From: Syntrophales bacterium
Lineage (GTDB): Bacteria > Desulfobacterota > Syntrophia > Syntrophales > UBA2251
Assembly: GCA_035358035.1 (NCBI GenBank)
Contig: DAOPOS010000011.1
Span: 1,477-65,476, forward strand
Direction: 5' to 3'
Length of the DNA stretch: 64,000 bases
Each line of letters opens with the position of its first letter. Position 1 is the stretch's first letter. Position numbers and translations under genes: made by a program. The notes beneath the pieces are model-generated. The model was not told where the DNA came from and ran no database searches. It saw only the letters and a list, made by a program, of their open reading frames with translations. Shown here piece by piece: positions 35,375 through 64,000 of the stretch.

Positions 35375-38300
35375 CTAGGGTTGAACCGGGCCCGCCGGGG
35401 TTCTCTTGACGCCCAGTTTGTTCATCCGAAAGGCCAGCGTGGAGGGCGGAATGTCCAGAAGCTCCGCCGCACCGCCCTTCCCGCGGACTTTCCAGCCCGT
35501 TTTTTCCAGCGCCCAGAGGATATGGCGCCGTTCATTGTCGCGCAGGGTGACGACGCCCTTCCGGGGGCCGGTTTCCGGGTGCTGCATGGCGCCCAGTTCC
35601 GGAACCTTGAAGATCGGACCGGACGAGAGGATCGTGCCGCGCTCGATGATGTTTTCCAGCTCGCGGACGTTGCCGGGCCAGTCGTACTGGATGAGTTTCT
35701 CCATCTCCGCTTCGGTGATCCGGGAAAATTCCTTCCCCCGCTTCTGGGAGTAGATCCTGAGAAAATAGTATGCGAGCCGGGGGATGTCCTCTTTCCGCTC
35801 TCTCAGGGGAGGCACGTAGACGGGGAACACGGCCAGGCGGTAGTACAGGTCCGAACGAAACGTCTGGGCCTTGACCAGCCCTTCCAGGTTGCGGTTCGTG
35901 GCGACGATGAGGCGGAAGTCGGAACGCAGGGTTTCGCTTCCACCGACCCGCTCGAACTCCTTGGTCTGCAGGACCCTCAGCAGGCGGACCTGGATGTCCG
36001 GACTGATGTCGCCGATCTCGTCCAGGAACAGGGTCCCGCCGTCGGCCAGTTCGAACCGGCCCAGCCGACGCCGCATGGCCCCCGTGAAGGACCCCTTTTC
36101 ATGGCCGAACAGCTCGCTGGGGATCAGGCTCTCGGGGAGCGCGCTGCAATGGACCCGGATAAAGGGCTTGTCCCGCCGGGCGCTGTGGCGGTGGATGGCC
36201 CGGGCAACCAGTTCCTTGCCCACGCCGGTTTCTCCGACGATCATGACGGTGGCGTCCGTCTGGGCGACCTGCTCCACCTGGCTCAGGACATGTTTGATGC
36301 CGGAACTTTCGCCGACGATGTCCTCGAAGTGGAGGTTCTTCAGGTGCTCTTCCTTGTAGTACAGATTCTCCTCGGAGAGCTTGCGGTTCAGGCGCCTGAT
36401 TTCTTCATAGGCGCTGACGTTGTCCAGGGCGAAGGCCGCCCACGCCGCGAAGTAGGAGATGAGATCGAGGTCGGATTCCTTGAAGGCGCTGCTCAGAAGC
36501 CGGTTGTCGTGGTAGAGCACCCCCACGGTCTTGTCCCGCAGGATCATGGGGACGCAGATGCGGGAGCGGATGATTTCGCCGGCCGACAGGGCCTGGTTCT
36601 CCAGGTCCGACTCGAAGATTCTCCCCTGGCCGGTCGCGGCGACATCGTCGATCATCTTCATGGAGGAGGCGAAGCTCTCATGGCTGATCTGCTCCTGGGT
36701 CAGATTCTTGGAAGCCCGGAGGAGGAGTTTCCGGGGCGAACGCCCGTCTTCGAAAAGGAAGATGGCCCCCCGCTCCGCGCCGGTGATCCGGTTCAGGGTG
36801 GTGATGATGTGCTGGATCAGATCCTTGTTGTCGCGGATGGTGACCACTTCATGACCGAGCTTGATGATCTCCTTCAGGAGGCTTTCCCCCACCGGCCGGT
36901 TCTTGATCAGAACCCGCAGGTCGTCCGGAACCATCTCTTCGTTGAACGTGGCGAGGATCTTGCTCGTGATCTGCATCAGTTCCTGCGCCTTGCCCTCCTC
37001 CCCGCTGGCCAGGTATTGGCGGGCCAGCTCCAGGCGCGTCTTGGACAGTTCGATCTGGTGCCCCGCCTCGTCCAGCCACCGGACGGCATGGTTCAGAATG
37101 GGGATGATCTCCTTCGGGGGGGCGCCATCCATCTTCCGGACCAAGGCGAGGAACCGATAGGCCACCCCCTTGAGAAAGATGTTTTTCCCCTTGATCAGGA
37201 CGTTGACTTCCTTCTCGAGGGAAAGGCCGTCGATCTGGGGCAGCTTGCCCGTCTTCATGGCGAGGCACAGTTCCAGGAGGTACGGGTACAGGTAGACGGT
37301 GGCCTGGACTTTCTTGCTCTGCTGCAGGAAATCCCTGAGGTGCCGAACGGCCGGTTTCGTTTCGCCCCGGAGGTAGTAGAGGTAGGACAGGTTGATGTTG
37401 ATGGACATTCCGACCCAGTCGTTGTGGGACTTCTTCGCTTCCCGGCCCGAGGTTTCCAGAAAGGACAGGGCGTCTTCCCGCCGGCCGATGTCGAGCAGGA
37501 TGTTGCCGATGTTTCCCGCGGTATGGCAAGCCAGGTACAGATCCCCCCGCTCCAGGCAGTGGTTCCGGATGGCGTCCAGCATCCCCAGGCCCTGCGTCAC
37601 TTGGCCGATCTGGGCGTAGCAGTAGCCGATGGTGATGTTGGCCAGCAGATTGAAGCTCTCCCGGGGATAGTTTTCGATGTCGGAAACGGACTGTTCGTAG
37701 ATCTGGATGGCGTCCTTGAAGCGTCCCTGCCAGTACAGGAAAAAGGTTGAGAAATTCATGGCCGAGCGCATCAATCTCGGTTCGTTCAGTTCTTTGGCCA
37801 GGGCCCAGCCCTGATCGAACCACTGCATGGCGCTGTCGTAGCGGGAACGGAGCCACTCGTTCTTGGCCATGTGCATTTTGAGAATCGCCTGGGTGTCCTT
37901 CAGGTTGCGCTTTTCCGCCCTTTCCAGGGCCGCCTGCAGGATGGAGAGGACGTGGGCGGTGTCGTGGCGGGCGGTCGAAACCTTGGAATACTGGATGGCC
38001 GTGCGGGCAAACAGGCGGTCCTCATCCTCGCCGTACCGGGTCGCGAGGTCGTCGAGGACCTTGGTGTAGCACTGGAGGGCGTCTTCGGCCCGAAAGGCGT
38101 TCCGGTGAAGGTCGCCGGCGGCGGTCAGGTACTGGCACCGTTCCGTGTCGTTGACGATGTGGATGAGGTGATGGGCCAGGGCGTGGGCCTTCTGGTCATC
38201 GTCCGGCAACTGGCGCATCAGGGTGTCCGCGATGAAACCGTGCGCGATGGTCTCCTCCTGTTCGGAAAGGCGCTGCTTCCAGTCATCCTTTTTCCTGGGA

Positions 38301-38497
38301 TGCGAAAAGCGGTACTGACCGGGACCCTCCTGGCGCAGCACGCCCTCGCCGACGCCGTTGGCGAGCAGGGAAAGGATTTCGGAAGGTTTCTTGTCCGAAA
38401 AGAGATCCATCAGCCAGTCGATCGAAAAGGTCTCCTGAAAAAGCGCGGCCGTGGCCAACAAGCGCTGGTAATCGTTCTGCACGGGATCGGTTTCCAC
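35375..38497 (-). CDS. sigma-54-dependent transcriptional activator with long TPR-like N-terminal region, GAF domain, AAA+ domain and Fis-type HTH
   Basis: GETGVGKE Walker A; ELFGHEKGSFTGA (GAFTGA-type loop); C-terminal AAELLDIPPSTLAFRMNKLG. GTG start after AAGGAG. Confidence 0.85.
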   Translation of the reverse strand: METDPVQNDYQRLLATAALFQETFSIDWLMDLFSDKKPSEILSLLANGVGEGVLRQEGPGQYRFSHPRKKDDWKQRLSEQEETIAHGFIADTLMRQLPDDDQKAHALAHHLIHIVNDTERCQYLTAAGDLHRNAFRAEDALQCYTKVLDDLATRYGEDEDRLFARTAIQYSKVSTARHDTAHVLSILQAALERAEKRNLKDTQAILKMHMAKNEWLRSRYDSAMQWFDQGWALAKELNEPRLMRSAMNFSTFFLYWQGRFKDAIQIYEQSVSDIENYPRESFNLLANITIGYCYAQIGQVTQGLGMLDAIRNHCLERGDLYLACHTAGNIGNILLDIGRREDALSFLETSGREAKKSHNDWVGMSININLSYLYYLRGETKPAVRHLRDFLQQSKKVQATVYLYPYLLELCLAMKTGKLPQIDGLSLEKEVNVLIKGKNIFLKGVAYRFLALVRKMDGAPPKEIIPILNHAVRWLDEAGHQIELSKTRLELARQYLASGEEGKAQELMQITSKILATFNEEMVPDDLRVLIKNRPVGESLLKEIIKLGHEVVTIRDNKDLIQHIITTLNRITGAERGAIFLFEDGRSPRKLLLRASKNLTQEQISHESFASSMKMIDDVAATGQGRIFESDLENQALSAGEIIRSRICVPMILRDKTVGVLYHDNRLLSSAFKESDLDLISYFAAWAAFALDNVSAYEEIRRLNRKLSEENLYYKEEHLKNLHFEDIVGESSGIKHVLSQVEQVAQTDATVMIVGETGVGKELVARAIHRHSARRDKPFIRVHCSALPESLIPSELFGHEKGSFTGAMRRRLGRFELADGGTLFLDEIGDISPDIQVRLLRVLQTKEFERVGGSETLRSDFRLIVATNRNLEGLVKAQTFRSDLYYRLAVFPVYVPPLRERKEDIPRLAYYFLRIYSQKRGKEFSRITEAEMEKLIQYDWPGNVRELENIIERGTILSSGPIFKVPELGAMQHPETGPRKGVVTLRDNERRHILWALEKTGWKVRGKGGAAELLDIPPSTLAFRMNKLGVKRTPAGPVQP

Positions 38498-38692
38498 GTT
38501 TCCGGTCTCCTTTAACCCCTGAAAAACCTGCAGGCGCCGTTGCCGGCCGCGACGGACGGCAGCGCCCCGAACCTGATCCGAACGCTATCACAAGACGTGA
38601 ACTCAATCAAGGACCCTGCCCCGGATGGGTTCATCCGGCCGTCACGGGATTGCGGCGGGTCGGGGCGGGGGGGCGGAACCGAACGGCGGGGT

Positions 38693-38941
38693 TCAGTGTT
38701 CGAGCTTGACGAAATCCGGAATGTTCTCCAAACGGATCCCGTCCTGAACCTGCTCGAGAAAGGTTCTCCCTTCGCGGGTAATGTGGACGAGACCCTCCAG
38801 GTTGAGGATGACGCTGTACTTTGTCTGAAGGCGGTTCTGGCATGTATGGTTGAGAACGGCGGAGGCGTCCTGGTCCAGCACCCCGTCCACCTTCATGACG
38901 ATCGTGCGGTCATCGACGAACTTTTCCTTGATGTAGATCAT
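38693..38941 (-). CDS. small STAS-like protein (by-eye assignment)
   Basis: ATG 38941. 82 aa: MIYIKEKFVDDRTIVMKVDGVLDQDASAVL...SVILNLEGLVHITREGRTFL resembles an anti-sigma antagonist fold. Upstream of, and co-oriented with, the activator gene. Confidence 0.4.
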   Translation of the reverse strand: MIYIKEKFVDDRTIVMKVDGVLDQDASAVLNHTCQNRLQTKYSVILNLEGLVHITREGRTFLEQVQDGIRLENIPDFVKLEH

Positions 38942-39142: not shown

Positions 39143-39181
39143 TGCACAACATCCCGATGGCCGGAAACAGCATGTTGCGCA
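39143..39181. promoter_or_regulatory. candidate enhancer (UAS) inverted repeat TGCACAACAT-N19-ATGTTGCGCA
   Basis: 9 of 10 positions complementary. Ends 75 nt upstream of the sigma-54 promoter at 39257. The same half-sites recur at 46364-46401. Confidence 0.55.
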
Positions 39182-39256: not shown

Positions 39257-39272
39257 TGGCTTCAATTTTGCG
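39257..39272 (+). promoter_or_regulatory. sigma-54 promoter (TGGCTT-N5-TTGCG)
   Basis: GG at 39258-39259 and GC at 39270-39271 have canonical -24/-12 spacing. Upstream of the ABC/ligase operon. Confidence 0.65.
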
Positions 39273-39458: not shown

Positions 39459-40253
39459 ATGCTGAGGGTCACCAATCTCGAAACCACCTACAACGACATC
39501 ATTCTGGCCTTGAAGGGCATTTCCCTCGAGGTCCCGACGGGACGCATCGTTGCCCTCCTCGGCGCCAACGGCGCCGGCAAGACCACGACGATCAACACCG
39601 TCTCCGGGATCCGGAAAGCCATCGACCTTGAGATCGAGGACGGGAAGGTGGAGTTCGACGGCCGGGACATCGGCGCCCTCGAACCGCACGAGGTGGTCTC
39701 CCTGGGCATCTCACAGGTCCCGGAAGGACGTCGTATCTTTGCCGAACTGACGGTGGAAGAAAACATCCTTATTGGTTCCTATGGCCTGAAGGAGAGAAAA
39801 AACTTCATTCGCAACGAGGAGATGGTCTTTAACTATTTCCCGATTCTCAAGGAGCGGCGGCGGCAGCAGGCCGGCTATCTCAGCGGCGGGGAGCAGCAGA
39901 TGCTGGCCATCGCTCGGGCCCTCATCGCCGAGCCCCGGCTGATCATGCTGGACGAACCGTCCCTCGGGCTGGCGCCCCTGGTCGTGAGAGAAATATTCGA
40001 CATCCTCGGCCATATCAACCGGGAGCGGGGGGTGGCCATCCTGCTGGTGGAGCAGAACGCCAACGTGGCCCTGTCGATCGCCCACTATGGATACATTATG
40101 GAGACCGGCCGCATCGTGATGGAGGGGCCCAGTGACGTGCTTCGCGAAAATCGGGACATCAAGGAATTTTACCTGGGCCTGACGGATGTGGGCACCCAAA
40201 AAAGCTTCCGGGACGTCAAACATTACAAGAGACGGAAACGATGGCTGTCATGA
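39459..40253 (+). CDS. liv-type ABC transporter ATP-binding protein (LivF-like) with basic C-terminal tail
   Basis: Internal ATG 39459. GANGAGKTT, LSGGEQQML and LDEPSLGLAP motifs. Tail: GLTDVGTQKSFRDVKHYKRRKRWLS. Confidence 0.85.
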   Translation: MLRVTNLETTYNDIILALKGISLEVPTGRIVALLGANGAGKTTTINTVSGIRKAIDLEIEDGKVEFDGRDIGALEPHEVVSLGISQVPEGRRIFAELTVEENILIGSYGLKERKNFIRNEEMVFNYFPILKERRRQQAGYLSGGEQQMLAIARALIAEPRLIMLDEPSLGLAPLVVREIFDILGHINRERGVAILLVEQNANVALSIAHYGYIMETGRIVMEGPSDVLRENRDIKEFYLGLTDVGTQKSFRDVKHYKRRKRWLS

Positions 40254-41029
40254 ATCAGGAGGCTTCCCTTCAACTCGAGATCGCGGATCTGTCCATGAGT
40301 TTTGGCGGGATCCAGGCCATTCGAGGCGTCTCCTTTGGGGTCCAGCGGGGCGAGATCTATTCCATCATCGGACCGAACGGGGCCGGGAAGACCACCATCT
40401 TCAACTGTATCAGCGGGATTTACCGGGCCAAAACGGGCAGCATCCGCTTCGAAAACCGCGAACTGATCGGCCTCAAGCCGGACCGGATCGCGCAACTCGG
40501 CGTCTCCAGGGCGTTTCAGAACATCGCCCTGTTCAAGGGAATGACCGTTCTCGACAACCTGATGTCGGCGCGCGTCCACCTCATGAAGTACGGATTGCTC
40601 GGGGCCGCCGTTTACCTCGGCCGCTGTCTTCGGGAAGAGGTTCAGAACCGCGACGAAGTCGAAGACGTGATCGAGTTTCTCGATCTGCAGCCGGTGCGCA
40701 AATCGCCGGTCGGGAGCCTGTCGTACGGCCTGCAGAAGCGGGTGGAGCTGGCCCGGGCCCTGGCCATGAAGCCGAAGCTGATGCTGGTCGACGAACCCGT
40801 GAGCGGCATGAATCTCGAAGAACGCGAGGACATGGCGCGGTACATCATCGACATCAACGAGGAGAGGGACATCACGGTGATCCTCATCGAACATGACATG
40901 GGACTCGTCATGGACCTGTCCGATCGCGTGACGGTCCTGAATTTCGGCACCAAGATCGCTGAGGGCGCCCCGGGGGACGTCAGCAGGAATCCGGAGGTGG
41001 TCCAGGCGTACCTCGGGGAGGCGGGATGA
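40241..41029 (+). CDS. liv-type ABC transporter ATP-binding protein (LivG-like)
   Basis: GPNGAGKTT, and the LivG-type insertion before the signature YGLQKRVELARAL. 13-nt overlap with the upstream gene. Confidence 0.85.
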   Translation: MAVMNQEASLQLEIADLSMSFGGIQAIRGVSFGVQRGEIYSIIGPNGAGKTTIFNCISGIYRAKTGSIRFENRELIGLKPDRIAQLGVSRAFQNIALFKGMTVLDNLMSARVHLMKYGLLGAAVYLGRCLREEVQNRDEVEDVIEFLDLQPVRKSPVGSLSYGLQKRVELARALAMKPKLMLVDEPVSGMNLEEREDMARYIIDINEERDITVILIEHDMGLVMDLSDRVTVLNFGTKIAEGAPGDVSRNPEVVQAYLGEAG

Positions 41030-41078: not shown

Positions 41079-42890
41079 ATGGAGAGGGTAGAGACCACGC
41101 TGCCGAAACTCCTGTTGGAGAAGGCCCGGATCTATGGGGGGCGGGTCGCCATGCGGGAGAAGTACAAGGGCATCTGGCAGGAAATCTCGTGGAACGCCTA
41201 CCGGGACAAGGTCGAGGCCTTCTCGCTGGGCCTTGTAGCGCTGGGCATGACGAAGGGGGATCAGGTCTCGATCTTGGGAGAGAACTGCCCGGAGTGGATC
41301 TTTGCCGACCTCGCGATCCAGAGCGTGGGTGGCGTGGCGGTCGGCATCTATCCGACGAATTCGGCCGACCAGGTCCGGTATATCCTCGACCACAGCGAAT
41401 CCCGGTTCGTGGTCGTCAAGGACCAGGAGCAGGCGGACAAGGTACTCGCGGCCCAGGCGTCGCTGCTCCGCCTTGCGAAGATCATCGTGATCGACATGAA
41501 GGGGCTGCGCCATTACGAAGAGCCCCTCATCGTCAGCTATCGGGAGGTGGAAGCGGCCGGCCGGGAGGCGGCCCGTCAGGACCCGGAACGCTTTCCCCGG
41601 CTCGCGGCGGCGACCCGGCCCGAGGATGTGGCCTTTATCGTCTACACCTCGGGCACCACGGGGCATCCCAAGGGCGCCATGATTTCGCACCGGAACATCA
41701 TCCATCAGATCGTCAACGGCCTGCAGCCGATCCTGCGCTTCACGGATCGGGACACCCTGCTGTCCTATCTGCCGCTGTGCCATATCCTGGAGCGAAACCT
41801 GTCCATGGCAATGCCCCTGGTGTTCGGCTACACTATTAACTTTGCCGAGTCGATCGAGACGGTTCAGCAGAATATTCAGGAGATCGGTCCGACGTTCTTT
41901 GCCGCCGTTCCGCGGATCCTCGAAAAGCTCCACTCGAGCGTCCAGATCCGGATGGGGGATTCAACGCGGTTCAAGCGCTGGGTGTATCGGGCCTGGCAAC
42001 CGGTCGGGCGCCGGGTTTCGCAGTTTGAAATGAGCGGCGAGCCGGTTCCCTGGGGCTGGCGGCTCCTGTACGCCCTGGGTTATCTCTTCAGCTATCGCGC
42101 CATCCGGGACAAGATCGGAATGCTCAACTGCCGTTGCCTGATGAGCGGCGGCGCCCCCATTGCGCCCGAGATCCTGAGTTTCTTCCGTTCGCTGGGCGTG
42201 CGGACCATCGAGATGTACGGGATCACGGAAACGGCGGGAACGGTGTCCGGTCCCCAGGGCACAATCAAGCATGGCTCCGTGGGCGAGCCGTGCCGGGCGC
42301 TGGAACTCAAACTGGCCGAGGACGGGGAGATCCTGCTGCGCGGGGATTCGATCTTTGTCGGATACTACCGGGATCCCGAGGCGACCCACGATGTCCTTCC
42401 AGACGGCTGGTTCCATACGGGCGATGTCGGCGAACTCGACGCGGACGGCCATCTTTACATCGTCGACCGCAAGAAGGACATCATCATCACCTCCGGAGGG
42501 AAAAACATCTCTCCCTCGGAGATCGAAAACAAACTCAAGTGCAGCACCTACATCAAGGAGGCCATCGTCATCGGGGATCGCCGCAACTACATCACCGCCC
42601 TGATCCAGATCGATTACGACAACGTGGGCAACTGGGCGCAGAAGAACAGGATCCCCTACACGACCTACCGGAGTCTGGCGGAAAATCCGTCCGTCCACGA
42701 TCTGATCCGCGAGGAGGTCCATGCCGCGAACGAAGGTCTCGCCCAGGTGGAAACCGTCAAGAAGTTCAAGATCCTGGAGAAGGAACTGGACCAGGATGAC
42801 GAGGAACTGACGGCCACGCAGAAGGTGAAACGCAAAATCATCGAGGAGCGGTTCAAAGGGGAAATCGACGCGATGTACACGGGGCGGTGA
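41079..42890 (+). CDS. long-chain-type AMP-forming acyl-CoA ligase embedded in the ABC operon
   Basis: YTSGTTGHPKGA, YGITETAG and GWFHTGDVGELDADGHLYIVDRKKDII motifs. Internal ATG 41079. Confidence 0.85.
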   Translation: MERVETTLPKLLLEKARIYGGRVAMREKYKGIWQEISWNAYRDKVEAFSLGLVALGMTKGDQVSILGENCPEWIFADLAIQSVGGVAVGIYPTNSADQVRYILDHSESRFVVVKDQEQADKVLAAQASLLRLAKIIVIDMKGLRHYEEPLIVSYREVEAAGREAARQDPERFPRLAAATRPEDVAFIVYTSGTTGHPKGAMISHRNIIHQIVNGLQPILRFTDRDTLLSYLPLCHILERNLSMAMPLVFGYTINFAESIETVQQNIQEIGPTFFAAVPRILEKLHSSVQIRMGDSTRFKRWVYRAWQPVGRRVSQFEMSGEPVPWGWRLLYALGYLFSYRAIRDKIGMLNCRCLMSGGAPIAPEILSFFRSLGVRTIEMYGITETAGTVSGPQGTIKHGSVGEPCRALELKLAEDGEILLRGDSIFVGYYRDPEATHDVLPDGWFHTGDVGELDADGHLYIVDRKKDIIITSGGKNISPSEIENKLKCSTYIKEAIVIGDRRNYITALIQIDYDNVGNWAQKNRIPYTTYRSLAENPSVHDLIREEVHAANEGLAQVETVKKFKILEKELDQDDEELTATQKVKRKIIEERFKGEIDAMYTGR

Positions 42891-42932: not shown

Positions 42933-43832
42933 ATGGAGAAGATTCTGGAGATCCTGTTGAACGGCCTGTCCATGGGGGCCATTTACGCCCTGCTGGCCCT
43001 GGGGTTCGTCCTCATCTTCAAATCGACCGGCGTCATCAATTTTGCCCAGGGCGAACTGGCCATGGTGGGGGCCTTCATCTGCTACAGCTTCGCGACGCTC
43101 ATGGACGTGCCTTATGTCTATGCCTTCCTTATCGCCCTGATCGGCGGCCTCGTTCTGGGCGCGATCGTCTATCAGGTCTTCTTCCGGACGATGGTGGGCG
43201 AGCCCCTGTTCTCGACGATCATGGTGACCGTCGGGCTCGCGAGCATCCTCACCTGCGTGGCCGGCCTCATCTGGGGACACGACGTCTATTCGCTCCGCTC
43301 CCCCTTCACGGACAAGATCTTCAACCTCGGGGGGATCATCTTCGCCCAGGGTTCGTTCTTCACCATTATCGTGTCCGTTGCCCTGTTCGCCCTGTTTGTC
43401 CTGTTTTTCAATCGCTCGCTCCTCGGGATCTCCATGCGCGGGACGGCCGAGGACCCCGATACCGCGGGGCTCATGGGCATCAACGTGAAGCGGATCCACA
43501 TGGCGGCCTGGGCGCTGGGGGCGCTGGTCGCGGCAGTGGCGGGCATGTTCCTCGCGGAGCAGAGTTTCGTCCGCCTTTCCATGAGCCATACGGGGATCAA
43601 GGCCATGGCGGCGGCGATTCTCGGGGGGATGGACAGCATCAGCGGTGCCATCCTGGGCGGGATCCTCATCGGCCTGGTCGAAGGCCTGGCCGCGAGCTAT
43701 CTGAGCGGCATGGAGCTGGGGAACTTCCACCTGGGGGACATCAAGGATGTGGCCGCCTTCGCGATCATGATCCTCGTGCTCATGGTCCGGCCGCACGGCA
43801 TCTTCGGCCGGGAAAAGGTGGAGAGGGTGTAG
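42933..43832 (+). CDS. branched-chain-type ABC permease (LivH-like)
   Basis: LLNGLSMGAIYALLALGFVLIF N-terminus; about 8 TM helices. Confidence 0.85.
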   Translation: MEKILEILLNGLSMGAIYALLALGFVLIFKSTGVINFAQGELAMVGAFICYSFATLMDVPYVYAFLIALIGGLVLGAIVYQVFFRTMVGEPLFSTIMVTVGLASILTCVAGLIWGHDVYSLRSPFTDKIFNLGGIIFAQGSFFTIIVSVALFALFVLFFNRSLLGISMRGTAEDPDTAGLMGINVKRIHMAAWALGALVAAVAGMFLAEQSFVRLSMSHTGIKAMAAAILGGMDSISGAILGGILIGLVEGLAASYLSGMELGNFHLGDIKDVAAFAIMILVLMVRPHGIFGREKVERV

Positions 43833-50443: not shown

Positions 50444-50445
50444 CG

Positions 50446-56085: not shown

Positions 56086-58095
56086 ATGGGGCGGATTTTT
56101 ACGTGCAGCAACGAGGACGGCATCGCCGTGGTCCGGTTCGACGTGCCCGGCGAGGCGATGAACACCTGGACGGAGGAGGCCATCGCGGATTTTGCCGTTC
56201 TGCTCGAAACCCTGGAGAAGGAAAAGTCGGCCTATCGGGGTGTGATCTTCATCTCCGGCAAAAGCACGAATTTTCATGCCGGGGCGAATCTGAACATGCT
56301 GGGGGCGGAGAAGGACCTGGCGGACTTCCGGAAGGGGTGCGACGCGTTCAACGGGCTCTTCATCCGGCTGGAAAACCTCGGCATCCCCACCGTGGCCGCC
56401 ATCCATGGCCCCTGCATGGGCGGGGGGTATGAATTCGCCCTGACCATGACGGCGCGGATCGCGACCGACAGCAGGCGGACGACGATCGGCCTGCCCGAGT
56501 GCAACGTGGGCGTTATCCCCGGCGCCGGCGGCACCCAGCGTCTCCCCCGGCTCATCGGCTATCCGGCCCTGGATTTCATCCCCCGCGGCGCCGTTCTGCC
56601 CGCGGCCAAGGCCCTGGAGGTCGGCATGGTCGACCGGGTGATCCCGGAGGGGGACGACCTGCTGGCCAAGGCGAAAGGCCTGCTCGTGGAGATCATCGCC
56701 GGGACGGCCGGGCTGAAGCGTGAGAAGCCGGACCTGTCCGCACTCGACGCGACGCTCGAGGCGGCGAAAAAGAACGTGCTCAAGGCGACGCGGGGACGGG
56801 CGATACCGGCGCCGATGCTGGCGCTCAAGGCGATGAGCGAGGGACTCAAGGTGCCGATCGAGCAGGGCTTGAAGATCGAAACGGACTGTTTCATCGAGGC
56901 GCTCAAGGCCCCGGAATGCAAGGGGACGATCAACACCTTCTTCCTGAAGACCCTCTCCGACAAGCCTCAGGCCATGATTCCCAGGGGATTCGAGCCCAAG
57001 CCCATCCGGACATTCGGCGTCCTCGGCTTCGGCACGATGGGGCGCGGGATCGTCATCAACATCCTGACCCGGACAAAGCTGCCCGTCGTCGTCAAGGACG
57101 TCTCCGAAGCCCTGGAGCCGGGCATGGGCTTCATCCGGAAGATTCTGGAAGGCATGGCGGCCAAGAACCGCCTGAAGGAGCCCGTCGAGAACCTGCTCGC
57201 CCGGGTCAAGCCGGTGGCGGACTGGACAGACGACTTTACGGACGTCGATTGCGTCATCGAGGCCGTCTTCGAAGATCCCGCCGTCAAGGACCAGGTCTAC
57301 CGGGAGCTGTGCCAGACCGTCGCGGACGACTGCCTCCTGGCGACGAATACCTCGAGCCTGCCCGTGGACAAACTGGCGAAGAGCGTCTCGAACCCGGAGC
57401 GGTTCGTGGGGGCCCATTTCTTCTCCCCCGTCTGGATGATGCAGCTTCTGGAGATCATCCGGGGCCAGGCCACGAGCGACGCCACGACGAACAACATGCT
57501 GGCCGTCTGCGCCGCCCTCGGCAAGCGCCCGGTCGTCTGCAAGGACAACCCCGGGTTCGTGGTCAACGCCATGCTCTTCCCGTATTTCATCAAGGCCTTC
57601 GATCTCCTCGCGGAAGGCGTGCCCATGGACAGGATCGACGCGGCCATGATGAAGTTCGGCCTGCCCGTGGGGCCCATCCGCCTGACCGACGAGGTCGGGA
57701 TCGACGTCTCCTATCTCGTCCTGACGAAGTCCCTCGGGATGACGCCGCCGGTGGCCCTCGAGAACGTCTACCAGGCGGGTCGCTACGGCCGAAACAAGAA
57801 CGGCAAGGGATTCTACGCGGCGGACGGGTCGCCCGATCCCGAGGTCCTGCCCCTGATCAATCCGGACAACAGGCAGAAGGACTATTCCGTGACCGAGCTG
57901 CAGAACATGCTCTTCACCCCCTTCGTCCAGACGGGTCACGACCTGCTTGGGAAGGGGGTCGTCAGCGATCCGCGGTCGATCGACATCGGCGCGATCTGGG
58001 GGGTCGGTTTCCCGGCCGACAAGGGCGGTCCGATGAAATGGGGCGACCTGATCGGATTGAGCGAGAAGCTCTACGGCAAGAAATTCTACGCATAA
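56086..58095 (+). CDS. bifunctional enoyl-CoA hydratase / 3-hydroxyacyl-CoA dehydrogenase (FadB/PimF-like)
   Basis: Crotonase AIHGPCMGGGYEFAL; NAD-binding VLGFGTMGRGI; HFFSPV motif. Confidence 0.85.
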   Translation: MGRIFTCSNEDGIAVVRFDVPGEAMNTWTEEAIADFAVLLETLEKEKSAYRGVIFISGKSTNFHAGANLNMLGAEKDLADFRKGCDAFNGLFIRLENLGIPTVAAIHGPCMGGGYEFALTMTARIATDSRRTTIGLPECNVGVIPGAGGTQRLPRLIGYPALDFIPRGAVLPAAKALEVGMVDRVIPEGDDLLAKAKGLLVEIIAGTAGLKREKPDLSALDATLEAAKKNVLKATRGRAIPAPMLALKAMSEGLKVPIEQGLKIETDCFIEALKAPECKGTINTFFLKTLSDKPQAMIPRGFEPKPIRTFGVLGFGTMGRGIVINILTRTKLPVVVKDVSEALEPGMGFIRKILEGMAAKNRLKEPVENLLARVKPVADWTDDFTDVDCVIEAVFEDPAVKDQVYRELCQTVADDCLLATNTSSLPVDKLAKSVSNPERFVGAHFFSPVWMMQLLEIIRGQATSDATTNNMLAVCAALGKRPVVCKDNPGFVVNAMLFPYFIKAFDLLAEGVPMDRIDAAMMKFGLPVGPIRLTDEVGIDVSYLVLTKSLGMTPPVALENVYQAGRYGRNKNGKGFYAADGSPDPEVLPLINPDNRQKDYSVTELQNMLFTPFVQTGHDLLGKGVVSDPRSIDIGAIWGVGFPADKGGPMKWGDLIGLSEKLYGKKFYA

Positions 58096-58177: not shown

Positions 58178-59761
58178 ATGGCAACACTGTTTCACGGCAT
58201 CACCTGCGCGGACCTGTATGACCGTTCGGTGGCGGCTTTTCGTTCCCGCACCGCCATTCTCTTCAACGACGAGACGTACACCTACGACGCGCTGCAGAAG
58301 AACGCCTATTCCCTGGCCCATGCCCTCGACAAGCTGGGGCTCAAGAAGGGCGATCGGGTCGCGTTCCTGATGGCCAACTGTCCGGAATACATCTTCTGCG
58401 AGTATGCGCTGGGAAAGCTCGGGCTGGTCCGTGTTCCCCTGGCCGTTTTGCTCAGCTCCAAGGATCACATCTACATGATGAATCAGTCCGAGTGCAAGGC
58501 CCTGATCTACCATGAACGAATGGCCGGTCGGGTTCAGGAGATGATCCCCTCGCTCGAGACGGTCAAGCAGTTCATCTGCGTGACCCAGGATCCGGCGAGC
58601 GTGATGTCCGGGCACGAGCACCTGCAGTCCCTGATCGCGGCGAACCCGCCGGAAGCGCCCCGGGTCGCGCTTGAATGCACGGACCTGGTCGCGATCTATT
58701 ACACCGGTGGCACCACCGGCCTTCCCAAGGGCGTGATGATGGACCACAACACCTGGGTGGGCACGTTTATCAGCGAGATGCTCCACCTGGGGCTGGATTG
58801 GGACGAGGTCTTCGCCTTCGCCACGCCGCTGACCCATGCGGGGGGGTGCCTGATCCTGCCAATCCTGCTGAAACGCGGGACCTGCGAGATCCAGGATCAT
58901 TTCGACCCGAAGCTCTTTCTGGAGCGGGTGGAGAAGGTCAAGGTCACGACGACCTTCATCGTGCCCACGATGATCTACGTCCTGCTCGATTATCCGGACC
59001 TCAAGAAGTACGACCTCGCCAGCCTGCGCAACATCATCTACGGCGCGTCCGCCATCGCTCCGGCGCGCCTGAAGCAGGCGGTGGACACGCTGGGGCCGAT
59101 CTTCACCCAGCTCTTCGGGCAGACGGAGTCTCCCATGATGATCAGCGCCCTGTCCCGTCAGGAGCACGTCATCGACGATCCGGAGCGGCAGATGAAGGTC
59201 TACACGTCCTGCGGGCGCCCGGTCATGACGGCCGACGTCCGCATCGTGGACGAGAACGGCAAGGAGCTGCCCCGGGGCGAGGCGGGGGATATCGTCTGCC
59301 GGACGATCAACATGATGACGGGCTACCTCAAGAATCCGGAACAGACGGCGGAGACGATCCGGGACGGCTGGCTGTGGACCGGGGACGTGGGAAAGTTCGA
59401 CGAGGAGGGGTACCTCTACATCGTGGACCGTTCCAAGGATATGATCATCAGCGGCGGGTTCAACATCTTCCCCCGGGAGATCGAGGATGTCCTCCATGAG
59501 CACCCCGCGGTGAAAAACGTGGCCGTGGTGGGCGTGCCTCACGAGAAGTGGGGCGAGGAAGTCACGGCGGTGGTGTCGCTGCATGCGGGCAAGACCGCGA
59601 GCGAAAAGGAACTCGTCCAGTTCGTCAAGGAGCGCAAGGGAAGCCTCCTGGCCCCGAAGAGCGTCAAGTTCTGGGAGGAGATTCCCCTGACGAACCTCGG
59701 CAAGCTGGACAAGAAGAAGATCCGGGAAATGTTCTGGAAGGGGATGGACCGCAAGGTGTGA
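58178..59761 (+). CDS. AMP-forming acyl-CoA ligase
   Basis: YTGGTTGLPKGV and GWLWTGDVGKFDEEGYLYIVDRSKDMI motifs. Confidence 0.85.
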   Translation: MATLFHGITCADLYDRSVAAFRSRTAILFNDETYTYDALQKNAYSLAHALDKLGLKKGDRVAFLMANCPEYIFCEYALGKLGLVRVPLAVLLSSKDHIYMMNQSECKALIYHERMAGRVQEMIPSLETVKQFICVTQDPASVMSGHEHLQSLIAANPPEAPRVALECTDLVAIYYTGGTTGLPKGVMMDHNTWVGTFISEMLHLGLDWDEVFAFATPLTHAGGCLILPILLKRGTCEIQDHFDPKLFLERVEKVKVTTTFIVPTMIYVLLDYPDLKKYDLASLRNIIYGASAIAPARLKQAVDTLGPIFTQLFGQTESPMMISALSRQEHVIDDPERQMKVYTSCGRPVMTADVRIVDENGKELPRGEAGDIVCRTINMMTGYLKNPEQTAETIRDGWLWTGDVGKFDEEGYLYIVDRSKDMIISGGFNIFPREIEDVLHEHPAVKNVAVVGVPHEKWGEEVTAVVSLHAGKTASEKELVQFVKERKGSLLAPKSVKFWEEIPLTNLGKLDKKKIREMFWKGMDRKV

Positions 59762-59847: not shown

Positions 59848-60990
59848 ATGGATTTCGCACTGACGGAAGAACAACGGTCTATCAGGGATACCATCCGGAA
59901 GTTTGTGGCGAAGGAGTGCGAGCGCGAGGCCATCAAGCGGCTGGACGAGGAGGGGGCCTTCCCCGCGGAACTCTTCCGCAAGGTGGCGGACATCGGCCTT
60001 TGCGCCCTGACGATCCCCGAGGTCGACGGGGGCGCCGGTCCCAACGCGCTCGGTGCGGTGATCGTGACCGCCGAACTCGCGTCGATCCACCCGCCCCTGG
60101 CGGGAACCTTCGCCACTCAAAGTCTCTGCGGCGGAAAGGCGCTGGCCGACCTGGGGACGGAGGCGCAGCGGGAGCGCCATCTTCCAGGCGTCATCGACGG
60201 GTCGTCGCTCGTGACCCTCGCGCTGCTCGAGCCCGATCAGGGCTATGACCAGAGCGTCAGCCGGACGACGGCCCGGCGGGAAGGGGAGCGTGTGGTCCTG
60301 AACGGGACGAAGACGTTCGTGCGTCTGGCCGACCGGGCGGCCCTGATCCTCGTCCGGGCGTCCCTGGAGGACGCTGACGGGACCCCCGCCTTCTTCATCG
60401 TCGCCGCGGAAACCCCCGGAATCGGGATCCGCGCGCTAGAGACGGTCGGATTTCACGGGATGAGCCTGTGCGAGGTGGGACTGGACGCCGTCGCCGTTGG
60501 CGCGGAAGATAGGCTGGGGGGAGACGCCGATGCCCCGGCGGAGCGCAGGAAACTCGACCGGGTCATGGGCGCCGAGCATCTGGCCGTGGCGGCCTGCGGC
60601 ATGGGCATCGCCCGGGGCGCCTACGCGTACGCGCTCCAGTATGCCCGGGAGCGCGTGCAGTTCGGCCGGCCGATCATCCAGTTCGGAGCGATCCGGGAGA
60701 TGCTGGTGGAGATGGCACTGCAGGCGCGGGTGGCCGAACTGCTCACCTGCCAGGCGGCATCGCTCGTCGACCGGGGGCAGGAATGCCTGCCGGAGATCAT
60801 CCAGGCGCGCCTTGCCGCGGCGGAGGCGGCGCGCAAGACGTCCCTGCACGGCGTCCAGATTTTCGGCGGCTACGGTTACGCCATGGAATACGACGCCCAG
60901 CGCTATCTCCGGGATGCCATGGTCCTGCTCAGCGGCGGGGGCACCCGTCAGGTGCTGGGCCAGGCGCTGGGAGTGCTCTGGGGATATTGA
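59848..60990 (+). CDS. acyl-CoA dehydrogenase
   Basis: MDFALTEEQRSIRDTIRKF and YAQRYLRDAMV-type C-terminus. Confidence 0.85.
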   Translation: MDFALTEEQRSIRDTIRKFVAKECEREAIKRLDEEGAFPAELFRKVADIGLCALTIPEVDGGAGPNALGAVIVTAELASIHPPLAGTFATQSLCGGKALADLGTEAQRERHLPGVIDGSSLVTLALLEPDQGYDQSVSRTTARREGERVVLNGTKTFVRLADRAALILVRASLEDADGTPAFFIVAAETPGIGIRALETVGFHGMSLCEVGLDAVAVGAEDRLGGDADAPAERRKLDRVMGAEHLAVAACGMGIARGAYAYALQYARERVQFGRPIIQFGAIREMLVEMALQARVAELLTCQAASLVDRGQECLPEIIQARLAAAEAARKTSLHGVQIFGGYGYAMEYDAQRYLRDAMVLLSGGGTRQVLGQALGVLWGY

Positions 60991-62302: not shown

Positions 62303-63067
62303 TTGAAGACGATGAGCCTATTGAAGGTCCACAACCTGACCGTGCAGTTCGGCGGCATCAAGGCCCTGTCGGCCATCGATTTCGAAATGGAGGAGAAGGA
62401 AATCCTTTCGATCATCGGTCCGAACGGGGCGGGGAAGACCACCCTCTTCAACTGCGTGTCCGGCGTTTATCGTCCCACCGTGGGAGAGGTTCTGTTTGCC
62501 GGGGAGAGCCTGCTCGGGCTCTCCCCCGACAGAATCGCCCAGCGGGGCATCGGCCGGACCTTTCAGAACATCCGCTTGTTCAACAACATGTCGGTGCTCG
62601 ACAACCTGATGCTGGGCCGGCACATGAAGTTCCGGCGAAGCCTCGTCCACGCCTTTCTGCGCATCCGGAAGGAGGAGTTGATCCATCGAGAGAAGGTGGA
62701 GGAGATCATCGATTTTCTCGATCTCGCGGCCTACCGGGAATCCCGGGTCATCGACTGCCCCTACGGGGTGCAGAAGCGCGTGGAACTGGGCCGCGCCATG
62801 GTGATGGAGCCGAAGCTCCTGCTCCTGGACGAACCGGTCGCGGGATTGACGGTGGAGGAAAAAAACCGCGTGGCGTACCTGGTGACGGAGATGCGGGGCA
62901 GGTTCGGTTTTGCCGTCCTGCTCATCGAGCATGACCTGCGGATCGTGTCGCGGCTGGCCGACCGCATGGTGGTCTTGAACTTCGGAGAGAAATTGGCGGA
63001 GGGTCCTCCTGCGGAGGTGCAGAGAAACCCCGAGGTGATTCGCGCCTACGTCGGTGAAACCTCATGA
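62303..63067 (+). CDS. liv-type ABC ATP-binding protein (LivG-like), second copy
   Basis: GPNGAGKTT, YGVQKRVELGRAM and LLLLDEP motifs. Confidence 0.85.
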   Translation: MKTMSLLKVHNLTVQFGGIKALSAIDFEMEEKEILSIIGPNGAGKTTLFNCVSGVYRPTVGEVLFAGESLLGLSPDRIAQRGIGRTFQNIRLFNNMSVLDNLMLGRHMKFRRSLVHAFLRIRKEELIHREKVEEIIDFLDLAAYRESRVIDCPYGVQKRVELGRAMVMEPKLLLLDEPVAGLTVEEKNRVAYLVTEMRGRFGFAVLLIEHDLRIVSRLADRMVVLNFGEKLAEGPPAEVQRNPEVIRAYVGETS

Positions 63068-63837
63068 GCTTTCTCAGCGTCGCGAGCATCGAAACCCTCT
63101 ATTTCGACCGGATCTACGCCCTGCGGGGGATCTCCCTGACGGTAAGGGAAAACGAAATCTTCACCGTGCTCGGTCCGAACGGGGCGGGGAAGACCACGCT
63201 CCTGAAGACGATTGCGGGCCTGCTGAAGGACCAGCCCAAGAAGGGGACCATCGAGTTCCGCGGCAGGCGGATCAGTGGTCTTACGCCTGAAAAGATCGCC
63301 TCCCTGGGCATCGTCTACGTGCCGGAGGACCGCGGTCTTTTCCGGGAGCTGACGGTCGCGGAAAATCTCGATCTCGGCTGCTGGGGGCGCCGGGACCGGG
63401 ACGTGAAGAACGATCTGGATTTCATCTACGACCTCTTCCCCATCCTGAAGGAACGGGGCGGGCAGCAGGCGGAAACGCTTTCCGGCGGCGAGCAGCAGAT
63501 GCTGGCCATCGCCCGGGCCATCCTCCGCCGGCCGAAACTCCTCATGCTCGACGAACCCTCCCTGGGGCTGTCCCCCATCATGGCCCGCAGCGTGTACGAC
63601 ACCCTGCGCAAGGTCAGCGAGCGCGACATGACGATCCTCCTGGTCGAACAGAACGCCCGGATGGCCCTGGACATCGCCGACTACGGCTACATCATGGAGG
63701 CGGGTCGCATCGTGCTGAAGGGGACCTCGCGGGAACTGAAGGAGAACGACGACGTCAAGGAGCTGTATCTGGGCCTGGAGCAGGGGGACGCTTCCGAGAA
63801 GGGGTGGAAATTCTACACGAAGCGGAGGAGATGGTGA
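63064..63837 (+). CDS. liv-type ABC ATP-binding protein (LivF-like) with basic C-terminal tail, second copy
   Basis: GPNGAGKTT and LSGGEQQML motifs. Tail: GLEQGDASEKGWKFYTKRRRW. ATGA overlaps on both sides. Confidence 0.85.
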   Translation: MSFLSVASIETLYFDRIYALRGISLTVRENEIFTVLGPNGAGKTTLLKTIAGLLKDQPKKGTIEFRGRRISGLTPEKIASLGIVYVPEDRGLFRELTVAENLDLGCWGRRDRDVKNDLDFIYDLFPILKERGGQQAETLSGGEQQMLAIARAILRRPKLLMLDEPSLGLSPIMARSVYDTLRKVSERDMTILLVEQNARMALDIADYGYIMEAGRIVLKGTSRELKENDDVKELYLGLEQGDASEKGWKFYTKRRRW

Positions 63838-64000
63838 TGCCGTTGAACGCGAGGGCCGTTCCCCACGCCTTTTTTGAACAGGCGGACAAGCACCGCGCGC
63901 GCGTGGCGCTCCGGCACAAGCAGTACGGAATCTGGAACAAGGTCACCTGGGGCCGGTACGGGGAAACGGTCCGGCAAGTGGCCGCCGCCATCCTGTCGCT
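63837..64000 (+). CDS. acyl-CoA ligase, 5' fragment (runs off the window)
   Basis: MPLNARAVPHAFFEQADKHRARVALRHKQYGIWNKVTWGRYGE parallels the N-terminus of the 41079 ligase (KYKGIWQEISWNAY). Not in the ORF track. Confidence 0.6.
   Translation, partial: MPLNARAVPHAFFEQADKHRARVALRHKQYGIWNKVTWGRYGETVRQVAAAILS

Follow-up and report, generated by a model that had tools for sequence, protein, structure and literature searches.

Results

A catabolic gene block in a Syntrophales genome

The DNA under study is a 64,000-nucleotide stretch (the window) of the genome of a Syntrophales bacterium (GTDB lineage Bacteria; Desulfobacterota; Syntrophia; Syntrophales; UBA2251), located at positions 1,477 to 65,476 of the forward strand of contig DAOPOS010000011.1 in GenBank assembly GCA_035358035.1. 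It carries a block of plus-strand genes that is unbroken from position 39459 to the window edge at 64000, with about 25 co-regulated genes (Table 1). The block encodes two liv-type ABC uptake systems, several acyl-CoA ligases, two acyl-CoA dehydrogenases (ACADs), a FadB-like protein, a short-chain dehydrogenase/reductase (SDR), an HpaB/AbfD-family flavoprotein, an FMN oxidoreductase, and two modules in which thiolase-superfamily proteins are combined with DUF35 proteins. Module 1 consists of an HMG-CoA synthase (HMGS)-like domain fused to DUF35 and an SCP2-type thiolase, and module 2 of a thiolase-fold protein without catalytic cysteines (hereafter the cysteine-free protein), a free-standing DUF35 protein and a MaoC hydratase. 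Because the window is GC-rich (61-70%), genes were chosen by codon-position GC and then checked with Pfam. The Pfam scans of the window proteins recovered all genes named in a first-pass annotation, made from the sequence alone, at or next to the coordinates given there, including the two ligase genes upstream of the block that start at 31665 and 33331.

Table 1. Features of the locus. Positions are those of the window unless a contig is named.
Position	Strand	Feature	Basis
31665-33206	+	513-aa acyl-CoA ligase, upstream neighbour	Pfam, NCBIfam
33331-35277	-	648-aa ACS/PrpE-family ligase, upstream neighbour	Pfam, NCBIfam
35375-38497	-	Sigma-54 enhancer-binding activator, 1040 aa: TPR, GAF, Sigma54_activat (AAA+), Fis-type HTH_8	Pfam
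38693-38941	-	82-aa open reading frame, no Pfam match; membership of the system uncertain	Read from sequence
39144-39180	+	Upstream activating sequence UAS1, inverted repeat GCACAACAT-N19-ATGTTGCGC	Sequence scan
39257-39271	+	Sigma-54 promoter P1, TGGCTTCAATTTTGC (TGGCTT-N5-TTGC), before first ABC/ligase operon	Consensus scan
39459-40253, 40241-41029	+	Two liv-type ABC ATPases	Pfam ABC_tran, BCA_ABC_TP_C
41079-42890	+	603-aa acyl-CoA ligase within transporter operon	Pfam AMP-binding + AMP-binding_C_3
42933-43832, 43841-44875	+	Two liv-type permeases	Pfam BPD_transp_2
45034-46248	+	Periplasmic substrate-binding protein 1 (Peripla_BP_6)	Pfam
46364-46401	+	Upstream activating sequence UAS2, GCGCAACAT-N20-ATGTTGTGC	Sequence scan
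46475-46489	+	Sigma-54 promoter P2, TGGCACCCATTTTGC (TGGCAC-N5-TTGC, exact consensus), before catabolic operon	Consensus scan
46548-47312	+	SDR oxidoreductase, 254 aa	Pfam; generic SDR models in NCBIfam
47371-48813	+	HpaB/AbfD-superfamily flavoprotein without [4Fe-4S] ligands	1U8V alignment
48977-50443	+	HMGS-like (PhlA-like) domain fused to DUF35 zinc-ribbon/OB fold, 488 aa	Pfam ACP_syn_III_C + zf-ChsH2 + OB_ChsH2_C
50446-51654	+	SCP2-type thiolase, partner of the fusion	Pfam, NCBIfam, residue alignment
51749-52657	+	NMO/FabK-family FMN oxidoreductase	Pfam, NCBIfam
52677-53861	+	Thiolase-fold protein without catalytic cysteines, predicted retro-aldolase	PDB alignments, 121-sequence alignment
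53878-54297	+	Free-standing DUF35 (Cys4 zinc ribbon + OB fold), putative partner of the cysteine-free protein	Pfam, residues, synteny
54342-54791	+	MaoC (R)-specific enoyl-CoA hydratase, Asp37 + His42	Pfam, residues
54858-56015	+	ACAD 1, IVD/LCAD-type base Glu248	Pfam, residue alignment
56086-58095	+	FadB/FadJ-like enoyl-CoA hydratase/3-hydroxyacyl-CoA dehydrogenase	Pfam, NCBIfam
58178-59761	+	527-aa acyl-CoA ligase	Pfam, NCBIfam, synteny
59848-60990	+	ACAD 2	Pfam, NCBIfam, residues
61106-62296	+	Substrate-binding protein of second liv-type system	Pfam; L091/L092 gene calls
62303-63067, 63064-63837	+	Two ATPases of second liv-type system	Pfam; L091/L092 gene calls
63837-64000	+	5' end of 604-aa FadD11-like ligase	Complete on L091-L093
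L091/L092, 10768-17005		Continuation beyond 64000: 604-aa FadD11-like ligase, two permeases, DUF2284 metal-binding protein, 601-aa ligase	
23493-24557	-	355-aa protein with NrpR regulatory domains (PF01995) + winged helix	
25648-25723		tRNA-Glu	Rfam
30712-31386	-	Stand-alone ATP-grasp_5 protein, 225 aa	
L088, 8360-9976		FAD oxidoreductase of sister cluster	
L009, 6740-8359		FAD oxidoreductase of sister cluster	
L085, 6014-7309		FAD oxidoreductase of sister cluster	
L090, 8180-9799		FAD oxidoreductase of sister cluster	

The cysteine-free protein has a conserved active-site pattern

The best PDB matches of the cysteine-free protein were an uncharacterized "thiolase" (4U4E, 6e-55) and the bile-acid aldolase CtSal (9MYR, 5e-43), with Ltp2 (8e-34) and BbsB (1e-31) at weaker scores; CtSal, ranked after 4U4E, is thus its closest named relative of known structure. 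At the position of the thiolase nucleophile the protein has Gly89-Gly90, aligned to Cys of 7YVY and to Gly of 9MYR and 4U4E. The site of the SCP2-thiolase HDCF motif reads YDSY (Tyr290-Asp-Ser292-Tyr293), compared with YDCY in CtSal and YDHF in Ltp2, and His340 of a Gly-His pair sits where Ltp2 has its acid Tyr344 and CtSal has Gln352. The description "cysteine-less" in the first-pass annotation is correct for the catalytic Cys residues but not for the protein as a whole, which contains six other Cys, five of them conserved.

The Gly-Gly, Tyr-Asp-Ser-Tyr and Gly-His motifs were invariant in 121 sequences that are 76-99% identical and come from several orders, which favors a working active site. 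Asp37 and His42 of the MaoC protein and three of the four zinc Cys residues of the DUF35 protein are also invariant, and the fourth zinc Cys is present in 42/43 sequences. In Sal and Ltp2 the catalytic base is the Tyr of the YDxx motif and the acid is Cys304 (Sal) or Tyr344 (Ltp2) (PMC12329534). The cysteine-free protein shares with this class the Gly in place of the nucleophilic Cys, the Tyr of the YDxx motif, and the DUF35 and MaoC partners, but has neither Cys304 nor Tyr344 as the acid. Because it displays a third residue pattern, we class it as neither Sal nor Ltp2. The residues that it retains predict retro-aldol cleavage of a 3-hydroxyacyl-CoA.

A conserved core surrounds the cysteine-free protein

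A metagenome scan with the cysteine-free protein returned 80 loci, 38 of which were non-redundant. Within 4 kb downstream of its gene, DUF35 was encoded at 34/35 loci and MaoC at 33/35. Among the 20 loci flanked by 8 kb or more on each side, an orthologue of the 527-aa ligase was found in 18, directly after MaoC in most sister loci, and an orthologue of ACAD 1 in 17. The other genes were less constant: SDR in 13/20, the FadB-like protein in 11, NMO in 10, liv-type permeases in nine, the AbfD-like protein in eight, the SCP2-type thiolase in seven and the scaffold fusion in five. The conserved core therefore consists of the cysteine-free protein, DUF35, MaoC, a CoA ligase and an IVD-type ACAD. 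By analogy with the logic of steroid side-chain removal, these genes would make up a recurring minimal pathway that runs from ligase through ACAD and MaoC to the aldolase-like/DUF35 pair.

The block also recurs as a conserved cluster elsewhere among anaerobes. Four other genomes, counted at species level, preserve the gene order sdr-abfD-scaffold-thiolase-aldolase-like-DUF35-MaoC-ACAD-FadB-ligase, and the cluster or variants of it occur in Syntrophales, Desulfatiglandales, Desulfobacterales and Desulfomonilia; the core protein was also found in metagenome-assembled genomes (MAGs) labelled Spirochaetota and Planctomycetota. All close homologues with a named source are from metagenomes or MAGs, as are 10/10 clusters checked. 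Identical contigs are present in several metagenome assemblies, two of which belong to JGI projects that we take to be anaerobic digesters. In a Syntrophales MAG the fusion protein is 97% identical, and identities across the cluster are 94-98%.

In many sister clusters the gene directly adjoining that of the AbfD-like or aldolase-like protein encodes an amine-oxidase/CrtI-like FAD oxidoreductase (538 aa, with a range of about 430-540 aa), often with a metallo-beta-lactamase-fold hydrolase alongside; both are absent from the window. The oxidoreductase matches known enzymes over the dinucleotide-binding (FAD) motif only and provides no substrate clue.

Full-text literature searches returned no characterized syntenic pathway, in keeping with the earlier failure to match the gene order to one, and yielded only the lrc operon, a Pseudomonas thiolysis complex and the steroid Sal/Ltp2 papers. 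A paper on the benzene "Magic" cluster was set aside as unrelated.

The makeup of the core raises the question of whether the block is a steroid or bile-acid side-chain module, in which ligase, ACAD, MaoC and DUF35-bound aldolase would shorten the side chain of a sterol or of cholate by C2/C3 units in a methanogenic setting. Its enzyme logic is that of Shy-Sal and ChsH1/H2-Ltp2, the nearest relatives of known structure include CtSal and Ltp2, and the multiple CoA ligases recall cholate degradation. Bile acids and sterols are abundant in digesters, the environment that we take to be the source of the contigs. However, the combination of YDSY and His is neither the YDCY of Sal nor the YDHF plus Tyr344 of Ltp2, and the locus has a free-standing DUF35 and one small MaoC, with neither a MaoC-DUF35 fusion nor a heteromeric hydratase. 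Moreover, no steroid-nucleus gene, aldehyde dehydrogenase or heteromeric ACAD was detected in the window or the sister loci examined, and the ligase scores lie far below the cut-off of the steroid-24-oyl-CoA synthetase model. We therefore consider a role in steroid breakdown improbable.

Module 1 resembles a degradative thiolase on an inert scaffold

Among proteins of known structure, PhlA (4e-38) is the nearest to the N-terminal domain of the fusion protein, followed by archaeal HMG-CoA synthase (1e-22); the match for the C-terminal part is the DUF35 subunit from the archaeal complex. Alignment to the archaeal HMGS (6ESQ_I) covered the Glu, Cys and His positions of the E-C-H-N catalytic tetrad, which are Thr77, Leu110 and Pro233 in the fusion. 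In 165 aligned homologues, the Glu position is Thr in 163, the Cys position is Leu, Thr, Gln or Met, and the His position is mostly Pro; none of the three catalytic residues was found at its position among the residues tallied. Two Cys residues lie close by: Cys109, beside the former Cys position, is Ser in most of the 165 homologues, and Cys234, which adjoins the former His position, is retained in 151 of them. The thiolase, in contrast, is intact, with Cys88-Ala-Ser (CxS), His296-Asp-Cys298-Phe and Gly-His346-Pro, all kept in 81 aligned homologues. It scored 688 bits against NF004810 (acetyl-CoA acetyltransferase, cut-off 403), formally an equivalog that is uninformative on substrate. At L088, one of the sister loci, this slot is filled by an ordinary FadA/BktB-type thiolase.

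A recently described Pseudomonas fluorescens complex combines a fused HMGS-DUF35 protein without the E-C-H-N tetrad with an ACAT carrying Cys/HDxF/GHx; it thiolyses acetoacetyl-CoA and makes neither acetoacetyl-CoA nor HMG-CoA (PMC12960953, 2026). Of 1,030 bacterial HMGS/ACAT/DUF35 loci, 1,001 are of this uncharacterized kind (PMC12960953). Module 1 has both features of the class, a fused tetrad-less HMGS-DUF35 protein and an adjoining thiolase with CxS/HDxF/GHx. The absent HMGS residues, the intact thiolase motifs, the Pseudomonas precedent and the ordinary thiolase in the L088 slot together argue that module 1 is a degradative thiolase and not an aldol module, and that its HMGS-like domain is an inert scaffold predicted to be incapable of HMG-CoA-synthase-type aldol/Claisen chemistry. 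The earlier proposal of two DUF35 modules for carbon-carbon bond cleavage by aldol/Claisen chemistry thus fails for module 1 and survives, as a prediction, for module 2.

These data bear on a wider form of that proposal, in which aldol/Claisen chemistry in both modules, a reverse HMG-CoA-synthase type of reaction included, would serve to open a ring or to cut at a branch. A similar role was suggested for LrcC of the limonene lrc operon, a PF08541+PF12172 fusion assigned to cleavage of 3-hydroxy-3-isopropenylglutaryl-CoA (PMC12583861). For the fusion protein this is largely refuted by the absence of the HMGS Glu, Cys and His in 165/165 homologues examined, and the characterized fused complex neither makes nor uses HMG-CoA (PMC12960953). 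In addition, all genes of the block, including its extension beyond the window, were accounted for and none encodes a 2-oxocyclohexanecarboxyl-CoA hydrolase of the BamA/BadI type; the sole crotonase (ECH) domain is the N-terminus of the FadB-like protein. We judge this explanation very improbable. A lyase role for LrcC would also be doubtful, provided that LrcC shares the family residue pattern. Since no ring hydrolase is present, ring opening is not indicated, and the block would handle at most products downstream of ring cleavage.

The scaffold/thiolase pair is very widespread, usually with SDR and ACADs, in Desulfobacterota, Spirochaetota, Dehalococcoidia and Sphingopyxis. In aerobic Sphingopyxis/Sphingomonas loci (L075-L084), the fusion and thiolase are 42-45% identical and lie beside SDR, ACAD and ligase genes, so the scaffolded thiolase is not confined to anaerobes; a bile-acid review made no link to these homologues. 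Other fusion homologues are extended by SDR or by SCP2 + Alkyl_sulf_C domains (P0091, P0092, P0099 and P0113-P0115, about 800 aa; P0095, P0106 and P0117, 600-670 aa). Such extended proteins recall peroxisomal multifunctional beta-oxidation proteins, which supports a scaffold or metabolon role.

ACADs and other enzymes of the catabolic operon

ACAD 1 has Gly-Gly-Gly (IGGGT) in place of Tyr-Glu-Gly, and Glu248 (NQERL) where 5LNX, CarC and Bcd have Gly; both features were invariant in 26 orthologues. ACAD 2 follows the same pattern, with Ser-Gly-Gly-Gly-Thr and a Glu in GAEHL at the helix-G position. IVD and long-chain ACADs carry their catalytic Glu on helix G and not in a C-terminal Tyr-Glu-Gly, and accept beta-branched or bulky substrates.

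The first-pass annotation had listed an AbfD/HpaB-family flavoprotein and called it AbfD-like. The protein aligned over its full length to the Clostridium 4-hydroxybutyryl-CoA dehydratase (1U8V, 1e-71), in which we take the [4Fe-4S] ligands to be Cys99, Cys103, Cys299 and His292, with Tyr296 as a further key residue. Of these only His292 is kept; a gap, Asp, Tyr and Gly stand at the other positions, and Glu257 is replaced by Asp. The same is true of the clade: 119 homologues have His104-Asp105 and no CxxxC motif, and Arg293-Arg294 and Tyr299 are invariant or nearly so. Because the Fe-S ligands are absent, the protein is not a 4-hydroxybutyryl-CoA dehydratase, and radical dehydration is excluded. 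The second activity of AbfD is that of a vinylacetyl-CoA isomerase, and on this analogy our guess is that the protein may be a flavin-dependent 3-enoyl/2-enoyl-CoA (delta3-delta2) isomerase. The NMO protein is FabK-like, far below the cut-off of the FabK model in NCBIfam, and is probably an enoyl- or dienoyl-CoA reductase. For the SDR, the most likely start codon is the GTG at 46548, which follows an AGGAG sequence, as a start at 46467 would overlap the promoter; the L001 gene call also gives 254 aa. The SDR is probably a 3-hydroxyacyl-CoA dehydrogenase or ketoreductase. In NCBIfam, none of the ligases, ACADs, hydratases or flavoproteins, nor the SDR, scored above the cut-off of a model of equivalog rank. 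Cut-offs were exceeded only by the thiolase, with NF004810, and, with generic subfamily or family models, by the SDR, the ACS-like ligase and the 513-aa ligase.

Much of this gene content would also suit general fatty-acid beta-oxidation of long-chain, unsaturated or iso/anteiso-branched lipids from necromass, with the DUF35-associated proteins serving as scaffolds and with neither aldol cleavage nor a special substrate. FadD11 is the best match, below cut-off, of the ligases embedded in the transporter operons, the block encodes a FadB/FadJ-like protein, the scaffold/thiolase pair is common and can be swapped for an ordinary thiolase, and scaffold homologues fused to SDR/SCP2 domains resemble peroxisomal beta-oxidation enzymes. 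DUF35 scaffolds a thiolase, a reductase and a dehydratase in the archaeal complex, and NMO and the isomerase-like flavoprotein could be auxiliary enzymes for unsaturated acyl-CoAs. Nevertheless, the cysteine-free protein is 76-88% identical across orders, and such conservation, with Tyr290, Ser292, Tyr293 and His340 invariant at active-site positions, would be unusual in a mere scaffold, its strict linkage to a catalytically intact MaoC parallels Shy-Sal and ChsH-Ltp2, and both ACADs have the IVD/LCAD-type base and not that of the usual straight-chain enzymes. We regard ordinary lipid oxidation as unlikely.

The block contains two sigma-54 promoters, each with an upstream enhancer

Two sigma-54 promoters with a shared enhancer motif had been proposed, and both were confirmed. 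The common enhancer, GCRCAACAT-N19/20-ATGTTGYGC, occurs in only two copies in 64 kb, each starting about 110 bp upstream of the start of a promoter. P1, which starts 113 bp downstream of the start of UAS1, matches the consensus less well than P2, with correct spacing; P2 lies 59 bp before the GTG start of the SDR. The two promoters occupy the only two sizeable intergenic gaps, and no terminator-like site was found in any intergenic gap of the block. Loose matches to the sigma-54 consensus in the window (34, versus 49 expected) are not above chance; the evidence for the promoters is therefore their context, namely the gaps, the palindrome and conservation.

With respect to conservation, a UAS2-type palindrome and promoter lie at the same distance before the sdr orthologue in the related Syntrophales loci L005-L008, L094, L101 and L102, whose proteins are 65-98% identical to those of the window; UAS1 and P1 are also conserved in L005. 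Such conservation constitutes a phylogenetic footprint. The enhancer was seen only in these closer Syntrophales relatives and was absent from the more distant loci in which it was sought, and some variant clusters in other orders are under TetR rather than sigma-54 control.

The locus thus has the components of a sigma-54-dependent operon: promoters with -24 GG/-12 GC, enhancers about 100 bp upstream, and a nearby gene for an enhancer-binding protein. That protein gave only generic matches to enhancer-binding proteins in NCBIfam. Its adjacency makes the earlier label "dedicated" plausible; homologues (50-61% identity) adjoin 3/20 sister loci (L096, L128 and L129). The 82-aa open reading frame lies between the activator gene and P1, directly upstream of the activator start codon, and may be co-transcribed with it.

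Uptake systems, CoA ligases and flanking genes

On the longer contigs L091, L092 and L093 the block runs about 7 kb beyond the window edge, and on L091/L092 it ends at convergent ferredoxin and CdhD genes. As two ligases (604 aa and 601 aa) are complete there, the plus-strand block encodes at least four CoA ligases. The best NCBIfam match of the 603-aa ligase is FadD11, below cut-off. Membership of the two ligases upstream of the activator gene is uncertain, because a search for an enhancer or sigma-54 promoter at 31665-35277 found none. L021 has a copy of the 513-aa ligase (73% identical), which is encoded on the strand opposite to the scaffold/thiolase pair and about 8 kb upstream of it.

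The enzyme set was also compared with a biosynthetic, acyl carrier protein-independent fatty-acid or reverse beta-oxidation system, similar to the archaeal complex, which combines thiolase, DUF35, SDR, MaoC and enoyl reductase. A thiolase with DUF35, an SDR, MaoC and the FabK-like NMO are encoded together here, so that all four activity types are represented. Yet an inducible sigma-54 activator in charge of two uptake systems, two ACADs, a FadB-like protein and at least four CoA ligases is at odds with synthesis, the characterized fused complex does not condense acetyl-CoA (PMC12960953), and the second thiolase-fold protein has no nucleophile. Biosynthesis is extremely improbable.

The first 22 kb of the window contain housekeeping genes (recA, alaS, dinB and a PreP-like peptidase), no integrase was found among the upstream open reading frames scanned, and the GC shift is modest. 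For these reasons we rejected the reading of the block as a mobile element, which the term "island" in the first-pass annotation might imply; no mobility genes bound it. An Rfam scan detected no RNA element other than tRNA-Glu. This tRNA gene adjoins that of the 355-aa NrpR-domain protein; NrpR-type regulators are best known as nitrogen repressors in methanogenic archaea. The stand-alone ATP-grasp_5 protein is encoded just upstream of the two extra AMP-forming ligases and resembles one domain of ADP-forming acetate-, 3-hydroxypropionate- and 4-hydroxybutyrate-CoA ligases.

Discussion

A proposed pathway for beta-substituted acyl-CoAs

The first-pass annotation had combined these genes into one regulon for uptake, CoA activation and non-standard beta-oxidation, and our results support this view. 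We hold with moderate confidence that the block is an inducible regulon that takes up and activates its substrate and then runs a modified beta-oxidation, in which a beta-substituted acyl-CoA undergoes retro-aldol cleavage. The scheme below was built from the anatomy of the locus, catalytic-residue patterns, synteny, and promoter and enhancer conservation, and each of its reactions, like the substrate class, is a prediction.

An effector sensed by the TPR-GAF activator would lead to its predicted binding to both enhancers and to opening of P1 (uptake) and P2, whose catabolic operon apparently extends to and past the window edge. Judged from their families, the two ABC systems, each with an embedded ligase, would bring in a carboxylic acid and convert it to its thioester. 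The IVD-type ACADs would form the 2-enoyl-CoA and the MaoC hydratase the (R)-3-hydroxyacyl-CoA. Where the beta-carbon is substituted, such that the alcohol is not oxidizable or is sterically awkward, the cysteine-free protein, held by DUF35, would split the product in a retro-aldol reaction to acetyl- or propionyl-CoA and a carbonyl compound or oxo-acid. The 527-aa ligase could perform the first activation or re-activate a cleavage product. In ordinary rounds, oxidation by the FadB-like protein or the SDR would be followed by cleavage by the SCP2-type thiolase on the HMGS-like/DUF35 scaffold, and the FMN reductase and the Fe-S-less AbfD-like flavoprotein might deal with misplaced double bonds.

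SCP2-type thiolases are associated with 2-methyl-branched or bulky 3-oxoacyl-CoAs. Together with the IVD-type ACADs, the R-hydratase and the aldolase-like protein, the presence of such a thiolase fits a branched or bulky substrate, which upholds one half of the earlier suggestion of a branched or ring-containing acid; the other half, ring opening, is opposed by the lack of a ring hydrolase. Our best guess is a 3-alkyl-branched mono- or dicarboxylate, for example an isoprenoid acid or a product of terpene or alicyclic ring cleavage. A narrower version of the proposal, which we put forward only tentatively, is that the core (IVD-type ACAD, MaoC, the YDSY/His thiolase-fold protein with DUF35, and ligase) constitutes an undescribed, carboxylase-independent way past a beta-branch. 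Hydration of a 3-alkyl-2-enoyl-CoA, derived from isoprenoid acids or from 3-alkyl-dicarboxylates that remain after cleavage of alicyclic or terpene rings, would give a tertiary alcohol, which would then be split by a third catalytic type of thiolase-fold aldolase. In this organism the core would operate under sigma-54 control with dedicated uptake.

Several points weigh against the proposed retro-aldol regulon. Ser292 stands at the position of CtSal Cys304, and the C304S variant of CtSal is inactive (PMC12329534), so the Sal mechanism is unavailable to the cysteine-free protein. A different acid is needed; we infer Tyr290 as the base and His340 as the acid, the latter as a candidate only. No aldehyde dehydrogenase or ketone-activating enzyme was found in any locus examined, which leaves the fate of the predicted carbonyl product unexplained. 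Both substrate-binding proteins had only distant liv-type relatives in the PDB, with no informative ligand, and NCBIfam contained no substrate-specific equivalog for any ligase, ACAD or binding protein; the substrate was not identified by any family model, binding-protein relative or literature report. The roles given to the SDR, the NMO protein and the AbfD-like protein are guesses, and that the neighboring activator binds the two palindromes is likewise something we infer.

The enzymology by which strict syntrophic anaerobes in digesters and sediments break down beta-branched or bulky acids, such as isoprenoid acids, ring-cleavage products of terpenes and naphthenic acids, and sterol side chains, is largely unknown. 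If the cysteine-free protein is a Tyr/His aldolase, the Sal/Ltp2 class would extend beyond steroids, and the core would provide a marker gene set for metagenomes and a biocatalyst for carbon-carbon bond cleavage or formation. The residue analysis also cautions against annotating the widespread fusions, LrcC included, as HMG-CoA synthase-like lyases.

Comparison with known systems

Every component of the block belongs to a known superfamily, and module 1 falls in a recently described class. The YDSY/His aldolase-like clade with its fixed DUF35/MaoC/ligase/IVD-type ACAD partnership is not described in the literature searched, nor are the Fe-S-less AbfD clade and this sigma-54 regulon as a whole.

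Like the P. fluorescens ACAT/HMGS-DUF35 complex, module 1 has a fused HMGS-DUF35 protein without the catalytic Glu, Cys and His, an adjoining SCP2-type thiolase with Cys/HDxF/GHx, and no polyketide synthase or nonribosomal peptide synthetase context (PMC12960953). The two are likened by architecture and residues; the pair described here lies inside a large sigma-54 catabolic operon of a strict anaerobe. The C-acetyltransferases PhlACB and MucABC (PDB 5M3K, 9VBO) are also built from inactive HMGS-like, thiolase-like and DUF35 parts, but PhlC and MucB, which acylate phenols and tetramic acids, have lost HDxF, a loss that serves as the criterion for this type of subunit (PMC12960953). Because the window thiolase keeps its invariant HDCF, a role as a Friedel-Crafts acylase is unlikely. 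In the BbsAB benzoylsuccinyl-CoA thiolase and the archaeal fatty-acid synthase complex, DUF35 is likewise the zinc-ribbon/OB partner of an SCP2-type thiolase, and in the archaeal complex it also scaffolds an SDR and a MaoC dehydratase. The thiolases of these systems, however, are catalytically complete and have defined substrates, and neither system includes a cysteine-free thiolase-fold member. AbfD (PDB 1U8V) shares its fold, a full-length alignment and His292 with the flavoprotein of the block, which differs in lacking the Fe-S ligand Cys residues and Tyr296 and in having clade residues of its own (His104-Asp105, Arg293-Arg294 and Tyr299).

The lrc operon of the Syntrophobacteraceae MAG LiM6 was expressed during limonene degradation in a methanogenic enrichment from digester sludge, and its host, too, is a syntrophic member of the Desulfobacterota (PMC12583861). 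In that operon the fusion LrcC is followed by the thiolase LrcD and the SDR LrcE, and an ACAD and hydroxyacyl-CoA dehydrogenases are encoded as well. Unlike the block described here, lrc includes a BamA-like ring hydrolase and separate crotonases. It has no AbfD-like protein, NMO or aldolase-like/DUF35/MaoC triad, and its functions were assigned from omics data only.

The systems that come nearest to module 2 are Shy-Sal from Comamonas (PDB 9MYR) and ChsH1/ChsH2-Ltp2 (PDB 6OK1), which share with it the thiolase fold, Gly in place of the nucleophilic Cys, the Tyr of YDxx, the DUF35 and MaoC partners, and a CoA ligase and ACAD encoded alongside. In module 2 the motif is YDSY, with Ser in place of Sal Cys304 and His in place of Ltp2 Tyr344, and DUF35 and MaoC are separate small proteins. 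The module has no steroid gene context, and its hosts are uncultured anaerobes of the Desulfobacterota, Spirochaetota and other groups.

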